This document shows, piece after piece, positions 1,081 to 54,605 of a stretch of 64,000 bases of DNA; within the stretch, counting starts at the first letter, position 1, and each line of letters opens with the position of its first letter. The notes under the pieces were generated by a model. It worked only from the letters and a program-made list of their open reading frames with translations. It searched no databases and had not been told where the DNA came from. The position numbers and the translations under genes were made by a program. The stretch lies in the sequence record MW822008.1; one strand, 5' to 3'. Origin of the DNA: Escherichia phage BF17.

Positions 1081-1216
1081 ATTTGTGCAAATAAAAACCA
1101 ATGTGACTTTTCCTTGATATAGGTCAAGAGAAATAACCTGTTCTGACGCTATAATGTTGTCTGGTGATATTAAATATCTTCACCCCCAGATGATTTCAAA
1201 ATACAAGGAATGTACA

Positions 1217-3022
1217 ATGCAATTAGATAAATTATATACTGACGTAACGAATTTCCTCAATCAGAGCAATACTGATCTTACCAACGAAAATGCGAACAAA
1301 GATGCGAAATGCGTCAATACACACAGGGATTTACTTGCAGGTATCCTATCTAAGCATTATTCACAAGATGTTATTCCAAATGAGCTAATGCAGTGGCATA
1401 ATGATGGTTATGGTCATATTCATGATTTAGACTACTATATCAGCCCATTAACCAACTGTTGCTTAGTTAACTACCCAGATATGCTAAAAAATGGATTTAC
1501 CATTGGTTGTGCCAAAATTGAAGAACCAAAGAGTTTTAGTGTAGCATGTACAGTACTGACACAGATTGTACAAGCTGTAGCTAGTTCCCAATACGGCGGT
1601 CAATCGTTGGCTCACATTGATGTCGGTTTAGAACCTTACGTTCAAAAGTCATGGGATAAGCTGTTAGAAAAACAAAAGAAATATAATCTAAGTGATGAGT
1701 TCATTGAAGAAGAATTACGAAAAGAAGTATACGATGGATGTCAAACATTACTTTACCAGACTAATTCAATGATTAGCACTAATGGACAAGCTGCATTCAT
1801 TTCTCTTAGTTTAGGGCTTAATACTTCTAAATTTGGTAAATTAATCACTGAACAGTACTTAAAAGTTCATGAGAATGGTTTAGGTAAAGATAAGATTACT
1901 CCAGTGTTTCCTAAAGTAATTTTCTTTTTACAAGATGGTATAAACATGAATACCAATGATAGTAATTATGACCTTAAACAGTTAGCTATGCGTTGTGCAT
2001 CAAAACGAATCTACCCAGACTTTGTTTCAGTTCCATTAAATCACAAAGTGACGGGAAGTAGTAGTACTGCTGTAACACCGATGGGATGTCGTTCATTCTT
2101 AGGAAAATGGGAAGATTCAAATGGAAATGAACAATACAACGGTCGTTTCAATTTAGGTGTGGTTTCTATCAATTTACCTCTAATTGCTCTTGAGAGTGAT
2201 TCTGATGGAGAGTTTTTTGATAAGATAGACGAGCATATGAATATTGCATATCGTGCTCAGATGAACCGTGTGGAGCGTTTAAAAGGCACTAAAGCGAAGC
2301 AGAATCCAATTTTGTTCATGGAAGGTGCATTAGCACGTTTAGGTGCAGAAGAAACCATTGACAAGCTATTTTACAATGGTTATGCTAGTATTAGTATTGG
2401 TTATGTTGGTCTTGTTGAATGTTCAGAAATCCTCACTGGTTCTATCAGTAAGGAGTTTTGTATGTCAGTACTGAATTATATGAAAGTAAAATGTGATGAG
2501 TTCAAAAAAGAAAGTAATATTGCTTTTAGTCTATATGGAACTCCAGCAGAGTCGCTTTGTTATAAATTTGCACGTTGCATTGAAGCAAAATATCCTTCAG
2601 TACTAAAACGTGATTACATCACAAATTCCTTCCATCAACCAGTATGGGTAGAAAGTTCTCCATTTGATAAATGGAGTTATGAAGAAGGGTTTGCTTACCT
2701 AAGTAACGGTGGAAACATCAGTTATGTTGAATCTCCAAACTTAGCAAACAACATTCAAGCACTTGAAACATTAGTTAACTATGCGTACACTAAGATACCA
2801 TATTTTGGTATTAACCAACCAGTTGACCATTGTTATGAATGTGGCTTCCAGGGTGAGTTCAGTGTAGATAAACATGGTTTCCACTGTCCTGTATGTGATA
2901 ATCGTAATGAGAAGACAATCTCAGTGATTCGTCGTGTTTCTGGGTACTTGGGTAATCCTTCTTCGCGTGGCTTCAATAAAGGCAAGCAACAAGAGTGTTG
3001 TGAGCGTATTCAGCACAAATAA
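1217..3022 (+). CDS. nrdD: anaerobic ribonucleoside-triphosphate reductase (class III RNR) large subunit
   Basis: N-terminal NENANKD..RDLLAGILSKHY and DLDYY as in T4 NrdD; C-terminal glycyl-radical motif RVSGYLG and CxxC...CxxC zinc ribbon. Start moved to ATG 1217 (AAGGAA RBS 8 nt upstream); ORF track gives 1154. Confidence 0.9.
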   Translation: MQLDKLYTDVTNFLNQSNTDLTNENANKDAKCVNTHRDLLAGILSKHYSQDVIPNELMQWHNDGYGHIHDLDYYISPLTNCCLVNYPDMLKNGFTIGCAKIEEPKSFSVACTVLTQIVQAVASSQYGGQSLAHIDVGLEPYVQKSWDKLLEKQKKYNLSDEFIEEELRKEVYDGCQTLLYQTNSMISTNGQAAFISLSLGLNTSKFGKLITEQYLKVHENGLGKDKITPVFPKVIFFLQDGINMNTNDSNYDLKQLAMRCASKRIYPDFVSVPLNHKVTGSSSTAVTPMGCRSFLGKWEDSNGNEQYNGRFNLGVVSINLPLIALESDSDGEFFDKIDEHMNIAYRAQMNRVERLKGTKAKQNPILFMEGALARLGAEETIDKLFYNGYASISIGYVGLVECSEILTGSISKEFCMSVLNYMKVKCDEFKKESNIAFSLYGTPAESLCYKFARCIEAKYPSVLKRDYITNSFHQPVWVESSPFDKWSYEEGFAYLSNGGNISYVESPNLANNIQALETLVNYAYTKIPYFGINQPVDHCYECGFQGEFSVDKHGFHCPVCDNRNEKTISVIRRVSGYLGNPSSRGFNKGKQQECCERIQHK

Positions 3023-3030
3023 GGTAAATT

Positions 3031-3363
3031 ATGGATTTAAAGCCAATTGTGGTTAACAAATACAAAGAACCGTATGATGTGTATATTGGACGTGGGTCTA
3101 AATGGGGAAACCCATTTACCCATATTAAAGATAAACAAACCAAAGCCGAGTTCATTGTTAGTACAAGAGAAGAATCAATTGAAAAATTCAGAGAATACAT
3201 TATTGAACGTATTTCTTGTGGAGAAGTTAAGATTGATGAATTACTTGAACTCGCAGGGAAACGCCTTGGTTGTTTCTGTAAACCAAAATCATGTCACGGC
3301 GATGTTCTTGTCGAAATAGTGAGTGCAATATTAGATGAATTACCAGACGATAATCAAGGATGA
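3031..3363 (+). CDS. DUF4326-like conserved phage protein
   Basis: Motif YDVYIGRGSKWGNPF near N-terminus recalled as DUF4326 signature; wedged between nrdD and nrdG. Confidence 0.45.
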   Translation: MDLKPIVVNKYKEPYDVYIGRGSKWGNPFTHIKDKQTKAEFIVSTREESIEKFREYIIERISCGEVKIDELLELAGKRLGCFCKPKSCHGDVLVEIVSAILDELPDDNQG

Positions 3364-3805
3364 TTTAGTAAATGGAGAGGGCGTTCGCTGCTCTTTATTT
3401 GTTAGTGGGTGTTCGCACGGATGTGATGGTTGCTTCAATGAAGAAGCATGGGATTACAGAAGTGGTCAATTGTTCAGTACTGAAACAGTTGAGATTATAC
3501 TACAGGAACTAAAAAAACCATATGTTAGTGGTTTGTCACTTCTAGGCGGCGATCCATTAATGAAAAAGAATATAGATGAAGTTTTAAATCTATGCAAAGT
3601 AGTTAAAGAAACTTATCCTAGTAAAACTATTTGGTGCTGGAGTGGGTATACTTTAGATGAGATTATGAAAAATCATGCTAAAGATATACTTCAGTACTTA
3701 GATGTATTAGTTGATGGTAAGTTTATTGAGTCCGAAAAGAATTTAAAATTACCTTTCCGTGGTTCAAATAATCAAAGAATACTATATAAAAATAAAGATT
3801 TTTAG
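3335..3805 (+). CDS. nrdG: anaerobic RNR activating protein (radical SAM)
   Basis: N-terminus MNY...DLVNGEGVRCSLFVSGCSHGCDGCFN parallels T4 NrdG including the cysteine cluster. Confidence 0.85.
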   Translation: MNYQTIIKDDLVNGEGVRCSLFVSGCSHGCDGCFNEEAWDYRSGQLFSTETVEIILQELKKPYVSGLSLLGGDPLMKKNIDEVLNLCKVVKETYPSKTIWCWSGYTLDEIMKNHAKDILQYLDVLVDGKFIESEKNLKLPFRGSNNQRILYKNKDF

Positions 3806-3809
3806 CATA

Positions 3810-3831
3810 AGCACCCGTTGGGTGCTTTTTT
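3810..3831 (+). terminator. intrinsic terminator after nrdG
   Basis: Hairpin AGCACCC-gtt-GGGTGCT followed by TTTTTT. Confidence 0.65.
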
Positions 3832-3881
3832 ATTATGTATATAAATACATTAACTAATATCTAATTTATAAGGGATATATA

Positions 3882-6578
3882 ATGTCAAAGAAAATATATG
3901 GTGGCTTAGATGTCACACATAATGTGACAGTTAATGGTAAAAGAACAATTCAAGGAATAAATGAACAAGTTTTTGATTCCAACGGTAACTTGGAATTAGA
4001 TACTTATTCCAGAGATGAAGTACTAGATATAGTAAGTATGATGCCAATCTCCCATTATGGTTCACAAAACTATCTACCTGCGGGTGTTTCTGGGGATTTC
4101 AATGGTGCATCAGAAAACCAGTCACAACGTAGAAATAAAATTTTATTAGAAAACGATGGTACACTAGTACTTTTACGTAGTGGGACAAACGGTAGTGTTG
4201 AGGGATTATTTTATTCATATTTGGCTAACGCATTATCAGTTGATGACATGAGCCGTACAATTAACACTAGTCGTCAATACAAGCCTGGGTTTTTTGGTTC
4301 AAATAGAGTTGCGATTGGTTTATACAATACTGATCCAAATATTTTACTCGGTAGATATATTGATACTTCTAACAGTACTAATGGTTTGTTCATATCAATT
4401 ACCAATGGTACATTAGATGATAAATTGCATACTGGTTTTTTCGTTAACCAAGCAGATATATCACCTGAAGGTGGTATTGAATATGCTATGATGGCAGAAG
4501 ATGGTTCTATATATGTTTTTAACGTACTTAATGAAAATAACCAACTACAATTAGTTGTTGTAAAAGTTGTTTATAATATAAGCAATGGTACTTATACTGC
4601 AACTCGAATTACTGGATGGACTACTAAAACATTTTATAACACGACATATTCTGCACAAAATAATATGGTTATTACTAATCAGGTAACATCAACAAATATT
4701 GCTGATAAACCTTATGTGTATGTTCCACAAAATCTACGTGGTATTGGGATTTACATGACATCAATTGATTTATATGTTGCACAGCAGCCAGGAACGCAGA
4801 ATTTCCGCTTTAGAATGAACGGGGACGCTTGGTTTACAATGGCAACATATAATACACGTCCACAGCATAGTTACAGTTTTGTGTTCAATATGAGTACTAA
4901 ACAATGTACATTAGATGCGGGTAACGATATTGGTTCATATCAAGCACCATTAGTTATAACTAATACTGGTTCGGCATTAGTTCCTACTGGTAACGTTTTA
5001 AATAACGATCCATTGTATAACCATGCAAATGCAAGAAACATTTATAGTTCATATTTTTATTTGAATTCTGGTGAAGCTTTTTGTACTACATGTCCAAACT
5101 TAGCAGAACCATTACTTATGCAAAAAGCTAAGTTTCCTATTCAAATAGTTTATAGTATGCTGAATGTCCGTGCTGTACTTTCTACTGACTTCAAAGGTGG
5201 TATAGTTCGCCCGTCTTTTGGTTCAGCGGTTGGTTCATTTATTAATGGTGTAGAATTACTACCAGATAACAGTACTAAACAATATTCACGTGCATCAGGT
5301 AGTGGTGGATTTAGACCATCATATGCAGTTCATAAAAGTACTCCTAATTTTACATTTAAATCATTATCTTTAGGAACAATACAAGGTTATGAACCTACAG
5401 TTGAACGTGCTAATGTTGATGATAATGCAAATAATAGAATTTTTATTAGTAGTATTTCTGGGTCAACTGTCACAACCAATGGTGGTATTTTTATGGTTGG
5501 GCAACGTTATTCACAATCATTATCCTATGATAAAAACTTAAATGGCACAGGAATTATAAGCGTTACACAATCAGTACTGGACAATTTTAGAAATACTGAA
5601 TATGCCAAAGTTCTAAGTGATTGGAATTTATCAGCACAAGCATACCGTGATATGACACTATTTGTTCCACAACAAACAGACATTCCAGCTTTTGTTATGT
5701 TGAGTACAATTACTAATGATTATAGAAACTATATTAGAATTGCTGAAGTTAATGTCAATACTAGAGTTGGTAATATTACATCTATTACATTTAAGCGTTT
5801 AGTACTTGAGAATACGTATGGTGATAACTTTACACCAACTGGGAATGGTTCGATTGCATCTTCTTCTGTTGGTTTGACCATATATGATGGTGGTTCATTC
5901 TACTTCATTGGTGGTTCTGACCCATTATCACATCCAACAATAGGTAATACTGCAACTCATCAATTTAGAGCATATGTAACTAAATCAACTGCACAATTTA
6001 CAAGTTTTATAATTACTGGATCTCATGCCAGTTATGAACAAGGAAGTCAACCAGCAGCATTACCTGGTATTGGTTTTGGAATTTTTGAACCAATGGATTA
6101 CTCAAATAAAATGACATTCAAAAAATATGGAACAACGATTGCAGACTATAATAACTGGACTGCACAAGGTAGCCCAATTAACGTAGTATCCCAGGACGTT
6201 GCTCAAGGGTTTATTGTATATTTTACAGAGGAAACACCAGTTATTCTTTCAGGTAAGTCATTTTCACTACCAGTTTCAAATATTGATTTGAGAACTATTA
6301 AGTCTAATCCAGCAAATACAACATTTTATGTATATGTTAAATTGGAACAAGGATTGGCAAACTATTACATAACTACTGATGTTATTTCTGAAACAGGGAC
6401 AACTGCATATAATATTTTTTGGATAGGTACAATTCAAACTAATGCAATTCAAATCGAAACAATTAATATACAAAAACGTTCCCGTTTAGATATATTTGGT
6501 GCTTCACTTGAATCAGCAGGTTCATCGTTCCCAGTTAGCTACGGTCTACCATCACAAACAGGAACCATAAACTGGTAA
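3882..6578 (+). CDS. large fibre-like protein, paralog 1 of 3 (putative tail fibre/receptor-binding protein)
   Basis: 898 aa; shares N-terminal (PISHYG..LVLLRSGTNGS) and C-terminal (VVSQDVAQGF..KSNPANTTFY...SSFPVSYGLPSQTGTINW) modules with 7194-9923; function inferred. Confidence 0.5.
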   Translation: MSKKIYGGLDVTHNVTVNGKRTIQGINEQVFDSNGNLELDTYSRDEVLDIVSMMPISHYGSQNYLPAGVSGDFNGASENQSQRRNKILLENDGTLVLLRSGTNGSVEGLFYSYLANALSVDDMSRTINTSRQYKPGFFGSNRVAIGLYNTDPNILLGRYIDTSNSTNGLFISITNGTLDDKLHTGFFVNQADISPEGGIEYAMMAEDGSIYVFNVLNENNQLQLVVVKVVYNISNGTYTATRITGWTTKTFYNTTYSAQNNMVITNQVTSTNIADKPYVYVPQNLRGIGIYMTSIDLYVAQQPGTQNFRFRMNGDAWFTMATYNTRPQHSYSFVFNMSTKQCTLDAGNDIGSYQAPLVITNTGSALVPTGNVLNNDPLYNHANARNIYSSYFYLNSGEAFCTTCPNLAEPLLMQKAKFPIQIVYSMLNVRAVLSTDFKGGIVRPSFGSAVGSFINGVELLPDNSTKQYSRASGSGGFRPSYAVHKSTPNFTFKSLSLGTIQGYEPTVERANVDDNANNRIFISSISGSTVTTNGGIFMVGQRYSQSLSYDKNLNGTGIISVTQSVLDNFRNTEYAKVLSDWNLSAQAYRDMTLFVPQQTDIPAFVMLSTITNDYRNYIRIAEVNVNTRVGNITSITFKRLVLENTYGDNFTPTGNGSIASSSVGLTIYDGGSFYFIGGSDPLSHPTIGNTATHQFRAYVTKSTAQFTSFIITGSHASYEQGSQPAALPGIGFGIFEPMDYSNKMTFKKYGTTIADYNNWTAQGSPINVVSQDVAQGFIVYFTEETPVILSGKSFSLPVSNIDLRTIKSNPANTTFYVYVKLEQGLANYYITTDVISETGTTAYNIFWIGTIQTNAIQIETINIQKRSRLDIFGASLESAGSSFPVSYGLPSQTGTINW

Positions 6579-6589
6579 AGGATTACATA

Positions 6590-7177
6590 ATGGCATATAA
6601 AATAAGAGCAGACCTTAAGGCAATGCAACAAGTTACAGTTCAGGGTAAAAGTACTGGTCTTGGTGTATTAGGTAATAATATGACTTATTACCCAACAAAT
6701 TCAAATGGGGAATGTACATTCCCCTCTATTACCAAAGATGAAGTTAACTTTATTGTCAATGGATTACCACTTACACAATACGGAGAATTGTATGATGACG
6801 CTAGTCTAAATATTACTTCATCAGGCTATAGTCTTACATTTAATAGACAGATACCATCATTTATTGGTGGTTATCTTTATAAATTTCCAGCAGTTTCTAT
6901 TTTTGCTTCAACTGTTTCATCTGGAACACAAACACAATACGTATATGCAACGTTAGTTCTCGGTGAACCAATTTATAAAATATCACCAACACAAATACAA
7001 GAATCTGAAATTATAATGTTTATTGGAACACTGACCGTTGGTACAAGTGGTATTACAAATATAAACATTAATAAAGTATCCAGATTTAGTACATATAGAC
7101 CTAGTGTTACACAAAAAGGTTCTTCATTCCCAGTCAGTACTGGAAAACCATCAGAAACTGGTACAATTGGTTGGTAA
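6590..7177 (+). CDS. short paralog (195 aa) carrying only the shared N- and C-terminal modules of the flanking fibre-like proteins
   Basis: C-terminus ...SSFPVSTGKPSETGTIGW matches the C-terminal motif of both neighbours; N-terminus MxYKI...VTVQGK resembles theirs. Confidence 0.5.
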   Translation: MAYKIRADLKAMQQVTVQGKSTGLGVLGNNMTYYPTNSNGECTFPSITKDEVNFIVNGLPLTQYGELYDDASLNITSSGYSLTFNRQIPSFIGGYLYKFPAVSIFASTVSSGTQTQYVYATLVLGEPIYKISPTQIQESEIIMFIGTLTVGTSGITNININKVSRFSTYRPSVTQKGSSFPVSTGKPSETGTIGW

Positions 7178-7193
7178 ATTAAGGAAAAGAAAG

Positions 7194-9923
7194 ATGTCAT
7201 CAAAACGAATTATAGGAAGTGCCGAGATCCTTGGGAACTTGGCAATTGGACAAAGGTACGCTATGCGTACTTTTAATGGAACCTCACCGAATGCCAATAC
7301 TGGAATTGTTCAATATCCAATATATAAGCGTTCAGAAGTTCAAAGTATTTTAGATATGTTGCCTATATCACGTGTAGGAGAAATGGATTACTTACCATTA
7401 AACGTAAGTGGGTCGTATGAAGGTGCTACACCTATGTCAAGTGACCAAGTAGTTCAGCCAACAATTATTGAAGATGATGGAACCGCCGTTGTTCTGCGTA
7501 GCGGAACCAATGGTAGTACTAAAGGTTTTTATTATTCATTTATACGAGAACTCCGAAATATAACTATGATTTCACAAGAAAGTGTTATTTCAACCAATTC
7601 AATGTATAAACCTTCAATTATGAGTAGTACTGAAAATATTAAGTATTTTATTGGCTCTAATGGTTATGAGATGCTTGGATGTTTAAGTACTGAAGATAAT
7701 TATATTTTTACTATAACCAATGGCACATTTAACGAAATATCACATATTCATGCTAAAGTGCCAAGTACTTCTTTTGGTAATGATATGCCAATATATACAC
7801 ATATTGTTGGGACAAAGGTTTATATTTGGTGTAAAGATAAAAGTGTTTCTAATTTAGGATTAGCACTTTCAATTTATACAGTAGAGCTAAGTGATGTGAA
7901 AGCAAGCTCAATGGCATCATTAACAAAAGTTACTGGGTTATCAGGTCAAACTGTTCGAAACACAAGTTATTCTGCATCTAATAACATAAGAGTGTTCGAT
8001 AAATTATATAGTGTTGGTACTAGCTCGGATTCATTATTCGAAGTTACATCACCAGTATCACGTGTAGAATTTTCAGACTATACAGACTTTAACATTCAAG
8101 CCAACGTTAGTCCTGATTTATCAAAAATACGTGTAACTTTATATCCAACACATCGAATGGTTACACCTTTGTATATTTCAACAGTTTATGGTACTGGAAT
8201 AAGTTTTGTTTATAATATAAACTCAAAATCTATGTCACTAGATGGTAGTGCTCGTGCACCTGCAACTGTTTCATATAATAATGGATTTCAAGTTTCTAAC
8301 CCATTTGAAATTAATATGGTCAACTTCACAGGGACAACTGCTGCTGGTGTATTAGGAAACGCAGGTGGTTTATGTCAAACTAAAGATGGTTTGGTATTTG
8401 CATCTAAATTTAGATGGAGTTCAACTGAATTTTATGGTCTACAACGATATAAGGTTAGTGGTACACCGTTTGATTCATGGGTTGCCAGTACTAGAACCGC
8501 AAGTAACGTTATAAATGCAAACGTTTTACCAGTTTTTGGTAGTGCTGTTGGTGCAAACCTTTTAGGTGTACGTTTCATCGATAATAGAAAAATATTATTA
8601 GCATGTTCTGGTACGTATGATGATGTAACATATAATTATAATAATACTGTTTTTTCTGAAATAGGTTCACAACCAACATATCAATATAACTCAGTTCAAA
8701 ATAATACTACATTAAATGGTTTTGCACCACAATCTAATCGTAAACAAATAGGCGATGATTTTACATACACTGCTATGATTTCTCTTGTTGATACCGATGG
8801 TAGTGTTAGATGCTATGGAACATCATTCATTGAAGGTGTATATAAAACAAGTGGTGGATTATTAAACCCAGATACTTTAGAATTTGATGAAACATATACA
8901 ATAGAACCAACGGTATTAGAATCATTAAAACAAGATATTTTTGCTAATATAGGAAACTCTGGCATTGTTGGCACACTATCTGGACAAATTGTATTATATT
9001 ATGTACCTGATAATACTTTTTCTAAATCCATCGCAGTAGTTTCAGCATATAATCTTAACAATAACCAAGGTTATGCAATCTATGCCGAAGTTGATGTTGT
9101 ATTATCTGGAACTAACATAACTTCAGCTACATTGGTGAGTACTAGATATGAGACACTTAGTTCTGTTACAGGAATTATTACTGAAGCATATATGAAACGT
9201 TGTACTGGTCTAACAGTTGCAAAATATTCAGGATTTGGTTACATTGGTGTTGATGCTGTTCATCAATTTTCACAACCAGGTAATGCACAATTTAAGATGA
9301 TGATAGCTAAAACAGTAGATGGTGTCATAACATCAAATCGTTTTTTATCATCTAGTTACATCCAACTTGGTGCAGCATATCAACATGGTGTTATTCCTGG
9401 TGTTGGTTTTGGATATTACAATTTTCAAGATTCTGACTATCAAACCAAATCTGTATTCAGCGTTTTTGGTACAACATCTGCTGAAATGGATGGTTTAATT
9501 AGTGGAAATGGTAGCGTTAAAGAAAAGATTGTGGTAGTATCACAAGACGTTGCACAAGGATTCTCAGTGTACTTTACACGTGAAGTTCCGGTGTTTTTAG
9601 GTGGAATTTTCGACAGACTACCTATACAAAGTGTTGATTTAAGTACTGTAAAAAGTAACCCAGCTAATACTACGTTCTATTTGTATATACAAATGAACAG
9701 GAATACTAAGAAAGCGTCATATGTTATTAGTACTGAAACAATTGATGAATCTTTAACTAGCACTTACATTGGTAAGATAGTTACTGGAACTTCAGGAATA
9801 ACTTCAATTGATACAGAAAAAGTAACTCGTTTTTTGACATATCGTCCAAGTACAACGAAACGTGGTTCAGCGATACCTGCCAGTACTGGTGTACCATCAG
9901 GTCCAGGTACACGTTGGAAATAA
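7194..9923 (+). CDS. large fibre-like protein, paralog 3 of 3 (putative tail fibre/receptor-binding protein)
   Basis: Start set to ATG 7194 (AAGGAAAAG RBS); ORF track start 7104 is an in-frame non-ATG extension. Shared N- and C-terminal blocks with 3882-6578. Confidence 0.5.
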   Translation: MSSKRIIGSAEILGNLAIGQRYAMRTFNGTSPNANTGIVQYPIYKRSEVQSILDMLPISRVGEMDYLPLNVSGSYEGATPMSSDQVVQPTIIEDDGTAVVLRSGTNGSTKGFYYSFIRELRNITMISQESVISTNSMYKPSIMSSTENIKYFIGSNGYEMLGCLSTEDNYIFTITNGTFNEISHIHAKVPSTSFGNDMPIYTHIVGTKVYIWCKDKSVSNLGLALSIYTVELSDVKASSMASLTKVTGLSGQTVRNTSYSASNNIRVFDKLYSVGTSSDSLFEVTSPVSRVEFSDYTDFNIQANVSPDLSKIRVTLYPTHRMVTPLYISTVYGTGISFVYNINSKSMSLDGSARAPATVSYNNGFQVSNPFEINMVNFTGTTAAGVLGNAGGLCQTKDGLVFASKFRWSSTEFYGLQRYKVSGTPFDSWVASTRTASNVINANVLPVFGSAVGANLLGVRFIDNRKILLACSGTYDDVTYNYNNTVFSEIGSQPTYQYNSVQNNTTLNGFAPQSNRKQIGDDFTYTAMISLVDTDGSVRCYGTSFIEGVYKTSGGLLNPDTLEFDETYTIEPTVLESLKQDIFANIGNSGIVGTLSGQIVLYYVPDNTFSKSIAVVSAYNLNNNQGYAIYAEVDVVLSGTNITSATLVSTRYETLSSVTGIITEAYMKRCTGLTVAKYSGFGYIGVDAVHQFSQPGNAQFKMMIAKTVDGVITSNRFLSSSYIQLGAAYQHGVIPGVGFGYYNFQDSDYQTKSVFSVFGTTSAEMDGLISGNGSVKEKIVVVSQDVAQGFSVYFTREVPVFLGGIFDRLPIQSVDLSTVKSNPANTTFYLYIQMNRNTKKASYVISTETIDESLTSTYIGKIVTGTSGITSIDTEKVTRFLTYRPSTTKRGSAIPASTGVPSGPGTRWK

Positions 9924-9929
9924 ATTTAA

Positions 9930-9957
9930 AGCTCGTCTATTGACGGGCTTTTCTTTT
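9930..9957 (+). terminator. intrinsic terminator
   Basis: Hairpin AGCTCGTC-tatt-GACGGGCT followed by T-rich run. Confidence 0.55.
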
Positions 9958-9968
9958 ATGTGTATAAT
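9940..9968 (+). promoter_or_regulatory. sigma70-type promoter overlapping the terminator hairpin
   Basis: TTGACG (9940-9945), 17-nt spacer, TATAAT (9963-9968); about 22 nt upstream of the 9991 start. Confidence 0.45.
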
Positions 9969-9990
9969 TGAATAAAAATAGGAGGAAATT

Positions 9991-52594: not shown

Positions 52595-54559
52595 TTATCT
52601 TAATGTAACCAGTGTACGTCCGGCAAATCTCACATCAGGAGTTGCAGGGATACTGAACACTACGCTTGTTCCATTGAATGTAACACTATCAACTTCAACA
52701 CGAGTGTAAACACCAGTACTTACGAGTTCTTGAATTTCAGCAGTTACTATGTTACTAGCAGTTACTGTTAATGTGTAATATGAGCCGTTTAAAACCCACG
52801 CTGACGCAACAAACGGGTCAGTACGAACAGAACCAGAACCAATTGGAACCCATTGTCCTTGAACCTTCTGCATCGATGTACGTTCGGTATTTGAGTATGC
52901 AATCATACCATCAACACCAACCGAGTTATCAATTGTAGCCAGTACTGGTAATTGAATACCATATCGGTTGAAACGAGTACGAATAACACCGTTATCATAT
53001 ATACTTACATCAGCATAACTTCCCATAGTGAAACGTAAGTCTGCACCAAGTAGTTTTATATCACTTTGGTTAGTAGTACTTTCTAATGTGAATACACCAT
53101 TCTCTAGTAAGTTTATGTTTTTGAATTTGTTATTAGTTCCATTGAAATTAGTATTTGCATTATAAGTACTAACACCATTAACTGTAATAGTGTCACCAGT
53201 AGTGTCACCTAGTGTTGTATTACCTTTAACAACTAAATTCCCGCTGGCATTGATGTTACCTGCGTCTAAATCACCAGTTAGTGATGTTGAACCATCTACA
53301 ATAATATTTCCATGAAAATGTGATTCACCATTTTTAAATTCAACTTGAACTTTATTCATTGAACTCAAAGAAATAATATTACTACTTGCACTTATCCCTA
53401 CGTTTGTGTTTGATGCATTATCAAAACGTATTACTGGCGTAGCTGCTGGTGTAGCGGTAGTTTGGAATAATGTTAGTGTTCCATTATTAATTCGAACACG
53501 TTCTGTGCCAGCAGTGCTGAACCCAATTGCGTCATCGGATGGATGAAATATACCAGTATTAGCATCGGACCACTTAGTTGGGTCATTACCTGGGTTATTC
53601 GTTGGGTCAAACGGATTATTATTAAATGTCAATGCTGGTGCTGCTGCACTGCCATACACCACCCCAAAACGCCCAGAGCCGTCTGTTCCATCATTATACA
53701 TGGAATCACCAGTTCTACGTAAACACTCAATCACAACGTTATCTATGGATGTTTGAACGGTCCCTGCGTTTGTTCTAAATTGACGATGATTTGCAATCAT
53801 TACAGTATTGTCATATAATACTGAAGCAGCGGAAATGCTTGTTCTTGACTGACGAAGACGTATATTCTTATCTTCAGTTATAATAATCCAATCGCCATCT
53901 GAAAGTGCAGTTTGGTTCATTGGAACACCAGATGCAAATGGTTTGGTCAAGTCAGTATCTGTTGCTAAATTTTCAAGGCCATCATGACCAGTACTAGGAA
54001 TAGATGCAGTAATAATTCTAGCAAAAGCGTATGTTACTAGTTTAGCACCAGATATATTTGGATTAGAGTCAACATAATATAAAATTTCAATCCAATTACC
54101 TTGTCCAGTTGGATTTGTAGGTGTAAATGTAACAGGACTTGTTTGTGGATTATTTGCTTCATAATGTGCTTGTGCGGCATCCATTATACCACGCACGACA
54201 TAATAATCACCATTAAGCGATGGTGATGGTGCTGGTAGTGGAGTTTGTGCTAAAGGTGGATCAATATCATCTGGGATGGGATTATATGTACCAACAAATT
54301 GTAAACCACTAGTTACTGAATCTGGTAATTGGGAAGTAAGAAGTTTACCGTTTGCATCTAGGTTTGCAAAACGTCTATATGCCATTGAACCATCTTCAAA
54401 GTCTAGTACACCTTCAAATGCTTTCCATCCTTTATTGTATCTAATCATCCCTGATCTAACCACATCAGCGGTTTCTTTAGTCGGTGCTTTAGGTAATTCT
54501 AGAAATGCCTGACTATCTATAATTACACCACCATCACCTCTAATTCGATTTATACTCAT
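52595..54559 (-). CDS. tail fibre protein (distal, putative receptor-binding)
   Basis: 654 aa, Thr/Asn/Gly/Ser-rich; GAGGAAA RBS; last gene of the - strand fibre block. Confidence 0.5.
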   Translation of the reverse strand: MSINRIRGDGGVIIDSQAFLELPKAPTKETADVVRSGMIRYNKGWKAFEGVLDFEDGSMAYRRFANLDANGKLLTSQLPDSVTSGLQFVGTYNPIPDDIDPPLAQTPLPAPSPSLNGDYYVVRGIMDAAQAHYEANNPQTSPVTFTPTNPTGQGNWIEILYYVDSNPNISGAKLVTYAFARIITASIPSTGHDGLENLATDTDLTKPFASGVPMNQTALSDGDWIIITEDKNIRLRQSRTSISAASVLYDNTVMIANHRQFRTNAGTVQTSIDNVVIECLRRTGDSMYNDGTDGSGRFGVVYGSAAAPALTFNNNPFDPTNNPGNDPTKWSDANTGIFHPSDDAIGFSTAGTERVRINNGTLTLFQTTATPAATPVIRFDNASNTNVGISASSNIISLSSMNKVQVEFKNGESHFHGNIIVDGSTSLTGDLDAGNINASGNLVVKGNTTLGDTTGDTITVNGVSTYNANTNFNGTNNKFKNINLLENGVFTLESTTNQSDIKLLGADLRFTMGSYADVSIYDNGVIRTRFNRYGIQLPVLATIDNSVGVDGMIAYSNTERTSMQKVQGQWVPIGSGSVRTDPFVASAWVLNGSYYTLTVTASNIVTAEIQELVSTGVYTRVEVDSVTFNGTSVVFSIPATPDVRFAGRTLVTLR

Positions 54560-54605
54560 TTAAATATTTCCTCAGAATAGATTATATATTAAGTATTTAT
54601 TTTAG

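Follow-up and report, generated by a model that had tools for sequence, protein, structure and literature searches.

Three tandem paralogs downstream of nrdG

Three genes transcribed in the same direction lie immediately to the right of nrdG in Escherichia phage BF17, at coordinates 3882–9923 of the stretch of sequence record MW822008.1 analysed here (64,000 nucleotides; referred to below as the window), and they code for paralogous, putative host-binding proteins that we refer to as A, B, and C. Gene A (+ strand, 3882–6578) codes for an 898-residue product corresponding to gp323c (QDF13947.1) of Escherichia phage vB_EcoM_phAPEC6 (hereafter phAPEC6; MK817115.1), a 352-kb Rak2-like jumbo myovirus of the genus Asteriusvirus; gene B (+ strand, 6590–7177) codes for 195 residues, and gene C (+ strand, 7194–9923) for 909 residues with an architecture like that of A. 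Window bases 3000–10600 are 100% identical to phAPEC6, and are 95–99.6% identical to 121Q, PBECO4, G17, UB, JP4, and others, including phages recorded on Salmonella.

Among the three genes only A is annotated in MK817115, in which a 114-nucleotide 'gp322c' is placed inside gene C. That record also lacks a 178-residue 'tail fiber protein' gene further to the right (13393–13929; phrog_32568, E 1e-119), whereas the WPEC5, 121Q, and PBECO4 records annotate the 195-, 909-, and 178-residue genes. As these products are un-annotated, the published phAPEC6 virion proteomics is blind to B, C, and the 178-residue fibre protein. The start of C is most likely the ATG at 7194, which has an AAGGA 12 nucleotides upstream and agrees with the annotated start of the WPEC5 orthologue; an alternative GTG at 7104 gives a 939-residue open reading frame (ORF) that would overlap the 3′ end of B.

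BLASTP aligns A and C end to end at 28% identity (E 3e-64). Over its final 120 residues B matches the C-terminal module (C module) of protein C at 43% over 120 residues (E 7e-24) and that of A at 36% (E 1e-16), and over its first 85 residues it matches the N-terminal module (N module) of A at 34% (E 5e-7). As these E-values are composition-adjusted, the shared blocks are not compositional, a possibility that an earlier note on this DNA had raised against its own reading, and the same modules are recovered in orthologues of other genera. Identity between A and C varies by region, with 30% in the N module, 22–23% in the centre, 49% in the C module, and 41% in the C-terminal tail; among 32 orthologues of A the corresponding values are 61% for the N module, 47–53% for the centre, and 72–79% for the C module and tail. 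The centres of A and C are thus one homologous fold that is evolving faster than the ends. The earlier note had described tandem paralogs sharing N and C modules around divergent centres, of which the paralogy and the modules are upheld by BLASTP and alignment, but the centres, at 22–23% identity, are homologous and not of different kinds.

Multiple alignment with orthologues shows that B consists of the N module as far as PLTQYGEL (residues 1–66; 6590–6787), a 10-residue linker, and a C module and tail (residues 77–195), with ~710 residues absent, in agreement with its earlier description as N plus C modules with no centre. Its C module occupies residues 77–167 (6818–7090) and its tail residues 168–195 (7091–7174); B retains PLTQYG and the C block SFPVSTGKPSETGTIGW. 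The LRSGTNGS block, taken previously as an N-terminal block shared by the trio, is common to A and C only, where it is located within the initial strands of the beta-rich central body, and is missing from B. A motif GS(S/A)(F/I)P(V/A)SxGxPSxxG..W lies within the 28-residue C-terminal tail and is also conserved in Erwinia and EL homologues; gp20 of Erwinia phage Deimos-Minion (DM) has ~150 further residues beyond the tail. No further paralogs are detectable in the window, and hidden Markov models (HMMs) of the modules match only the trio and, weakly, one N-module-like segment described below.

The three genes have one-to-one counterparts in phage CBB: A corresponds to CBB_147 (46% identity), C to CBB_149 (35%, E 7e-172), and B matches the two ends of CBB_148 (45% and 32%). 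The order nrdG followed by genes of ~902, ~914, and ~912 residues is kept in CBB and in a metagenomic contig, the middle gene being full length in both. As the order and the three genes are conserved in this way, the trio predates the split of these genera. Sequence comparison indicates that B lost its body in frame, in the lineage that gave rise to Asteriusvirus and to its Salmonella and Klebsiella relatives; one Klebsiella record is among the matches listed for the 195-residue query. The length of B is held at 195–202 residues across 12 clusters (with one 151-residue entry), down to 46% identity. The ratio of nonsynonymous to synonymous substitution rates (dN/dS) relative to WPEC5 is 0.09 for A, 0.20 for B, and 0.13 for C, and the short gene B is under purifying selection. 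The earlier idea that the proteins are interchangeable is not supported by these comparisons, as the trio is a fixed orthologous set (CBB_147/148/149) that sits beside nrdG in several Rak2-like lineages, and its members are therefore probably used together and not as alternatives.

Amino acid identity to WPEC5 is 86% for A, 72% for B, and 73% for C, whereas neighbouring genes stand at about 92%, most of them at 90–99%. The trio has synonymous divergence (dS) values of 1.1–1.5, near saturation, compared with 0.1–0.5 for four neighbouring genes, which suggests allele exchange by recombination. Along 1154–13224 as a whole the dS relative to WPEC5 is uneven (0.1–0.5 in nrdD and a set of small paralogs, 1.1–1.5 in the trio, and 2.6 in an RlaP-type nucleotidyltransferase), as would result from a mosaic history with recombination among Asteriusvirus genomes.

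Predicted folds and relatives in other jumbo phages

Both large paralogs match phrog_3573 (A, E 1.7e-274; C, E 7.7e-267) and B matches phrog_26864 (E 4.4e-115), in each case over the full length; both PHROGs are labelled 'unknown function', and we found no published structure or function for this phAPEC6-type family in the literature. An AlphaFold2 model of A, built on a 40-sequence profile alignment, is nearly all beta and has a mean predicted local distance difference test score (pLDDT) of 86.3 and a predicted template modelling score of 0.80, with pLDDT below 50 only at residues 1–24, 50–53, and 872–898. In B the C module is modelled confidently (residues 70–165, pLDDT ~90), residues 15–64 are weaker (pLDDT 50–70) with four short strands at 15–36 and a helix at 49–58, and residues 1–14 and 168–195 have pLDDT below 50. 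These are monomer predictions only, and domain boundaries, packing of the N and C modules, and pockets were deduced from secondary structure, confidence values, and aligned lengths.

On this basis A is laid out as an N module (residues 1–60), a propeller-like beta-rich body (~85–772; nucleotides 4134–6197), a shoulder-like C module (773–870; 6198–6491), and a conserved tail without a confident model (871–898; 6492–6575); in protein C the C module lies at residues ~785–881 (9546–9836) and the tail at 882–909. The ~51 strands within residues 85–772 of A we read as two tandem propeller-like domains, with the numbers of domains and blades being estimates. Structure prediction of the centres had been proposed as a check in the earlier note; the modelled centre of A is propeller-like, and the homologous centres of A and C are one fold and not of different kinds.

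Fold comparison assigns the shared C module to the fold of the shoulder domains of receptor-binding proteins (RBPs) and TssK, a beta-sandwich plus a helix. In A this module lies behind the body and is followed only by the 28-residue tail, such that the N-terminal shoulder, neck, and C-terminal head order of the RBP/TssK proteins is not found. The earlier note's idea of host-interaction proteins with a 'common anchor' is partly supported in that the trio shares conserved attachment-type modules, but the anchor is not simply N-terminal, as the region that the three proteins share with the highest conservation lies at the C terminus. Fold matches of the body are to propellers only, among them lectins and glycosidases, and it has the propeller fold of the GH33, GH43, GH32, and GH130 sialidases and glycoside hydrolases. 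Searches by regular expression found neither the Asp-box nor the FRIP sialidase motif, and there is no Pfam BNR or GH match at E up to 1. Ten polar residues (E90, D92, R99, Y111, H183, R309, D345, R509, E622, and D739) are invariant or nearly so across paralogs and orthologues.

Protein A, as gp323c (98.6 kDa), was identified in the phAPEC6 structural proteome by electrospray ionization tandem mass spectrometry, with four unique peptides and 5.6% coverage (PMC7247149). Two Erwinia phage homologues, DM gp19 and RAY gp18, were recovered when crude lysates were analysed by mass spectrometry (PMC6690015). We rejected the 'structural protein' labels in CBB as proteomic support, as CBB_147–149 are absent from the mass-spectrometry table; the labels of CBB_148 and CBB_149 appear to rest on homology to proteomic data of other Rak2-like phages, the use of which is stated in the CBB paper (PMC5259590).

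A family profile finds full-length homologues in other Rak2-like phages (CBB, GAP32, Serratia phage BF, Erwinia SNUABM phages, Yersinia phage fHe-Yen9-04, Salmonella phage Munch, and 7t3), and also matches proteins annotated as 'virion structural' or 'minor tail' in the nucleus-forming chimalliviruses (Erwinia Agricanvirus, EL, Goslar). A search of 1.84 billion cluster representatives recovered 588 clusters at 50% identity, 252 of them at E < 1e-30. Most are of 870–990 residues, and the remainder include fusion types of ~1150 residues, giants, and body-less forms of 191–199 residues (seven clusters). The fusions in the chimalliviruses include DM gp19 (1163 residues) and two EL-like 'minor tail proteins' (1193 and 1184 residues), in which an N-terminal domain of ~270 residues homologous to the N domains of phiKZ gp131, gp133, gp134, and gp135 (E down to 2e-18 to 4e-19) is followed by the body and C module of a phAPEC6-type protein, which covers the profile from position 52 through to its end. 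DM gp18 (420 residues) contains a gp131-type N domain and the C module only, and is thus an independent body-less form. The giant homologues (1400–2488 residues) add gp131-type N modules as well as a 'tail fiber protein' PHROG module behind the C module; their extra domains have no Pfam match, and their PHROG matches are only to virion, tail, and tail-fibre modules.

The fibre base of the phiKZ virion, docked at the periphery of the baseplate, is a hetero-hexamer of gp131-type N domains, and the gp131 propeller lies distally and faces the host (PMC13250141). The gp131-type fusions together with this structure place the phAPEC6-type body, in these relatives, at the position of a known distal fibre domain. 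The phAPEC6 proteins themselves have no gp131-type N-terminal domain (phrog_2163/13857) detectable by N-module HMM and hhalign; hhalign of the phAPEC6 N module against the element at 165–300 of gp131 was negative (probability 2.4%), and the family HMM matches none of phiKZ gp130–135, gp145, and gp146 (E > 0.5 for gp131–135). A direct homology to phiKZ gp131 by way of phrog_3573, in which gp131 matches profile positions 3–110, was rejected, as that PHROG includes chimallivirus members with a gp131-type N domain and the apparent link arises from these.

Putative transcription signals and neighbouring genes

The trio is bounded on the left by an intrinsic-terminator-like hairpin and T-run directly 3′ of nrdG (+ strand, 3809–3827; an 8-bp stem with five GC pairs and a TTTTATTATG tail), which is conserved in WPEC5 and CBB. 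A late-promoter-like motif TATAAATAC with the core ATAAATAC follows (+ strand, 3840–3848), and begins 42 nucleotides upstream of the ATG at 3882. Chance alone would give 8.3 copies of TATAAATA in the 64 kb of the window, and this motif is the single one; WPEC5, CBB, and the metagenomic relative have the core at the corresponding position, amid diverged flanking sequences. The 8-mer ATAAATAC has four copies in the window, at 3841, 13266, and 43001 on the + strand and at 54600 on the − strand; it is not enriched (6.4 expected), and all four copies lie in the sense orientation 37–50 nucleotides upstream of an ORF start. They precede the trio, gp315c and a tail-fibre gene pair, a 181-residue ORF at 43051, and a 654-residue ORF ending at 54559, and ATAAATAC is a candidate late-promoter core for this phage group. 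By analogy with the T4 late promoter TATAAATA, we infer that the trio may be a late unit amid nucleotide-metabolism genes.

A second intrinsic-terminator-like hairpin with a 10-bp stem lies 5 nucleotides past the stop codon of gene C (+ strand, 9928–9951) and forms the downstream boundary; WPEC5, CBB, and the metagenomic contig likewise have a hairpin and T-run here. Overlapping it is a sigma-70-like promoter, TTGACG-17-TATAAT (+ strand, 9940–9968; 11 of 12 matches), identical in WPEC5, which would restart transcription into a downstream array of small genes. The −35 hexamer TTGACG lies within the descending arm of the 9928–9951 stem, an arrangement that is the same in WPEC5 and similar in CBB, and the overlap at 9928–9968 may constitute a compact switch from a late unit to a unit read by host polymerase. 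The array that begins behind this promoter (9991–11591, directly 3′ of the trio) contains three small tandem paralogs of 188, 173, and 169 residues, all of which match phrog_18641 and phrog_7868 (unknown function) and none of which contains a Pfam domain. To the left of the trio, a gene for a DUF4326 protein (3031–3363; Pfam E 6e-24) lies between nrdD and nrdG with its 3′ end overlapping the nrdG start; DUF4326 genes are located elsewhere within the same neighbourhood in CBB and the metagenomic relative.

The trio was noted earlier to be far from both the sheath/tube and the long-fibre genes, which is correct for the sheath gene (~26 kb away), but another tail-fibre pair, which includes gp314c (13393–16720), is only 3.5 kb downstream. 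This pair, within ~13239–16720, codes for the 178-residue fibre protein and for the 929-residue gp314c 'tail protein' (phrog_2871), the latter detected by mass spectrometry in phAPEC6. A 42-residue ORF, gp315c (13302–13430; MAQQIFTDIHTTGVIKFQNNFSGATGVDIKNDGFNIVSTRIY), overlaps the start of the 178-residue fibre ORF in another frame, and the two may be joined by a frameshift or represent a split gene. Its product is in the virion proteome with 69% coverage, and its start is the segment matched weakly by the N-module HMM (E 0.004). WPEC5 lacks the tail-fibre pair, its nucleotidyltransferase gene being followed directly by the homologue of 16796–17215, and this presence or absence makes the pair a better candidate than the trio for a swappable host-range cassette.

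Candidate roles of the trio

We favour, as somewhat probable, a model in which the trio is a late operon for tail-associated, host-binding adhesins (A and C) together with a selected body-less subunit or adaptor (B). The genes would be transcribed as a single late unit for virion-surface proteins carried on or beside the baseplate fibres. In A and C the C module, probably with the helix and first strand of the N module, would form a shoulder-type element that holds the oligomer together and probably docks it, and the faster-evolving propeller-like body of ~690 residues would be turned towards the host, where it would bind a surface glycan or possibly cleave it. The 28-residue tail would probably acquire order only upon assembly, forming a neck-like strand or a docking peptide. 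B would be what is left of the middle paralog once the body had been lost entirely and cleanly in frame, namely the docking element and the tail, and would probably serve as a body-less subunit, adaptor, or spacer at the same sites as A and C. The earlier suggestion of receptor-binding-type proteins is borne out to the extent that a structural, host-interaction type is indicated by gp323c in the virion proteome, the shoulder fold, the propeller body, the gp131-type fusions, and the greater conservation of the ends.

Several known systems share parts of this design. The shoulder, a beta-sandwich with a long helix, forms trimers that grip a baseplate protein by one of its loops, the partner being Dit for p2 and 1358 and TssG for TssK, and SPP1 gp22 is a stand-alone form (PMC7291167); in the myophage A-1(L) the long fibre is attached to the baseplate wedge through a shoulder domain (PMC10966104). 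In the p2 and 1358 RBPs and in TssK the order from N to C terminus is shoulder, neck, and a small beta-barrel head, whereas in the phAPEC6 proteins a propeller-like body lies before, or is inserted into, the shoulder-like module; there is no sequence similarity, and a trimer that docks similarly is a proposal for the phAPEC6 proteins. The A-1(L) gp34 protein differs in having an N-terminal shoulder followed by a T4 gp37-like arm and no propeller. The phiKZ gp131–gp135 proteins are also tandem virion paralogs that share an attachment module, include a short member (the 110-residue gp132, comparable to B), and carry a propeller on a fibre protein. They lack the phAPEC6-type body and C module, and their shared module is N-terminal, in contrast to the C-terminal location of the best-conserved part in phAPEC6; the phAPEC6 proteins lack the gp131-type N domain, whereas the EL and Erwinia Agricanvirus proteins fuse both. 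The phi11 RBP Gp45 (PDB 5EFV), with a stem, a five-bladed propeller platform, and a tower, is similar in having an N-terminal attachment segment, a propeller (which binds cell-wall sugar in phi11), and a further C-terminal domain. The full-length model of A matches 5EFV by Foldseek at E 2e-4 with a low template modelling score that is driven by the propeller only, and Gp45 differs in having its own C-terminal tower and in belonging to a siphovirus of Gram-positive hosts.

A number of observations weigh against the adhesin model. A Pfam scan of A, B, and C gave no meaningful match at E up to 1, and no PDB chain matches by sequence either of the large proteins or the 40-sequence family profile. 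The four-peptide mass-spectrometry signal of gp323c is weak, the phAPEC6 cryo-electron microscopy paper assigns gp323c to no density (PMC7247149), and CBB_147–149 are not among the entries of the CBB virion mass-spectrometry table (PMC5259590). The shoulder-like module is C-terminal or split, unlike the N-terminal modules of the p2 RBP, TssK, and the A-1(L) fibre, and, as the baseplate anchor in the chimalliviruses is presumably the gp131-type N domain, it may serve in oligomerization and not in docking. Furthermore, the cassette is 99.5% identical in phages recorded on E. coli and on Salmonella, and so is not an obvious host-range switch.

In another reading the proteins are structural or decoration parts apart from receptor binding, such as bases or terminal knobs of the unusual hair fibres that surround the sheath and capsid of phAPEC6 and CBB, or decoration densities of the collar and distal tail. 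The hairs and decoration densities of phAPEC6 and CBB have no known genes, gp323c is a low-abundance virion protein without an assigned place, and a docking domain that forms trimers could just as well be placed on the sheath or capsid. However, the family is present in GAP32, for which hairs are not reported (PMC5259590), and in chimalliviruses (Erwinia Agricanvirus, EL, Goslar) of a different virion design, in which it is fused to a gp131-type baseplate-fibre anchor, and we consider a decoration role unlikely. We had also entertained these as the hair-fibre genes, and judge this unlikely as the family occurs in GAP32 and the chimalliviruses and the proteins are compact; a ~100-kDa body of this kind would be unable to build a 119-nm hair shaft. 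The placement in the virion would be unchanged if the propeller bodies were virion-borne enzymes (glycosidases, sialidases, or depolymerases) acting on capsule, lipopolysaccharide, or biofilm glycans. Most of the fold neighbours of the body are indeed propeller glycoside hydrolases or phosphorylases and sialidases, including the phage phi92 endosialidase, and the ten conserved polar residues would be in keeping with this, but no enzyme family signatures are present, and an enzymatic role seems to us quite unlikely.

For B itself, we think it improbable that it is an assembly chaperone mimicking the docking domain of A and C, or a decaying remnant of a deleted paralog. It does have a fibre-like gene on either side, a setting common for fibre chaperones, it has no body, and, never having been annotated in phAPEC6, it could not have been recorded by the proteomics. 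A remnant is nevertheless at odds with a dN/dS of 0.20 at a dS of 1.1, with the constancy of its length in the 12 clusters, and with the seven clusters of N-plus-C forms in the deep search, as well as with the independent analogues DM gp18 (N anchor plus C module) and phiKZ gp132 (a fragment-like gp131 paralog). The retention of the conserved C-terminal tail in B argues for the same interactions as those of A and C.

The adhesin model can be extended, tentatively and with a rather low likelihood, to one in which the N and C modules are the two halves of a single shoulder-type docking domain that holds the body of ~690 residues as an insertion. B would then co-assemble with A and C in mixed trimers or a ring and set the number of host-binding bodies per attachment site, a logic that would recur independently in the chimalliviruses (DM gp18 and phiKZ gp132). 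If so, the shoulder with an inserted body would be new among the topologies described for receptor-binding proteins, body-less paralogs would serve generally in jumbo-phage adsorption organelles to set valency or spacing, and the 588-cluster family would be a major unrecognised class of jumbo-phage adhesins.

Rak2-group jumbo phages (phAPEC6, 121Q, PBECO4, CBB, GAP32) are being considered for therapy, and their adsorption apparatus is largely unassigned. The adhesin model offers a first working function for a widespread jumbo-phage family labelled 'unknown', and the shoulder fold and the gp131-type fusions provide candidates for unassigned tail densities and for receptor-binding engineering. 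The recurrence of body-less paralogs under selection raises a testable question of fibre assembly, and the family connects adsorption modules of two lineages, the Rak2-like phages and the nucleus-forming chimalliviruses.

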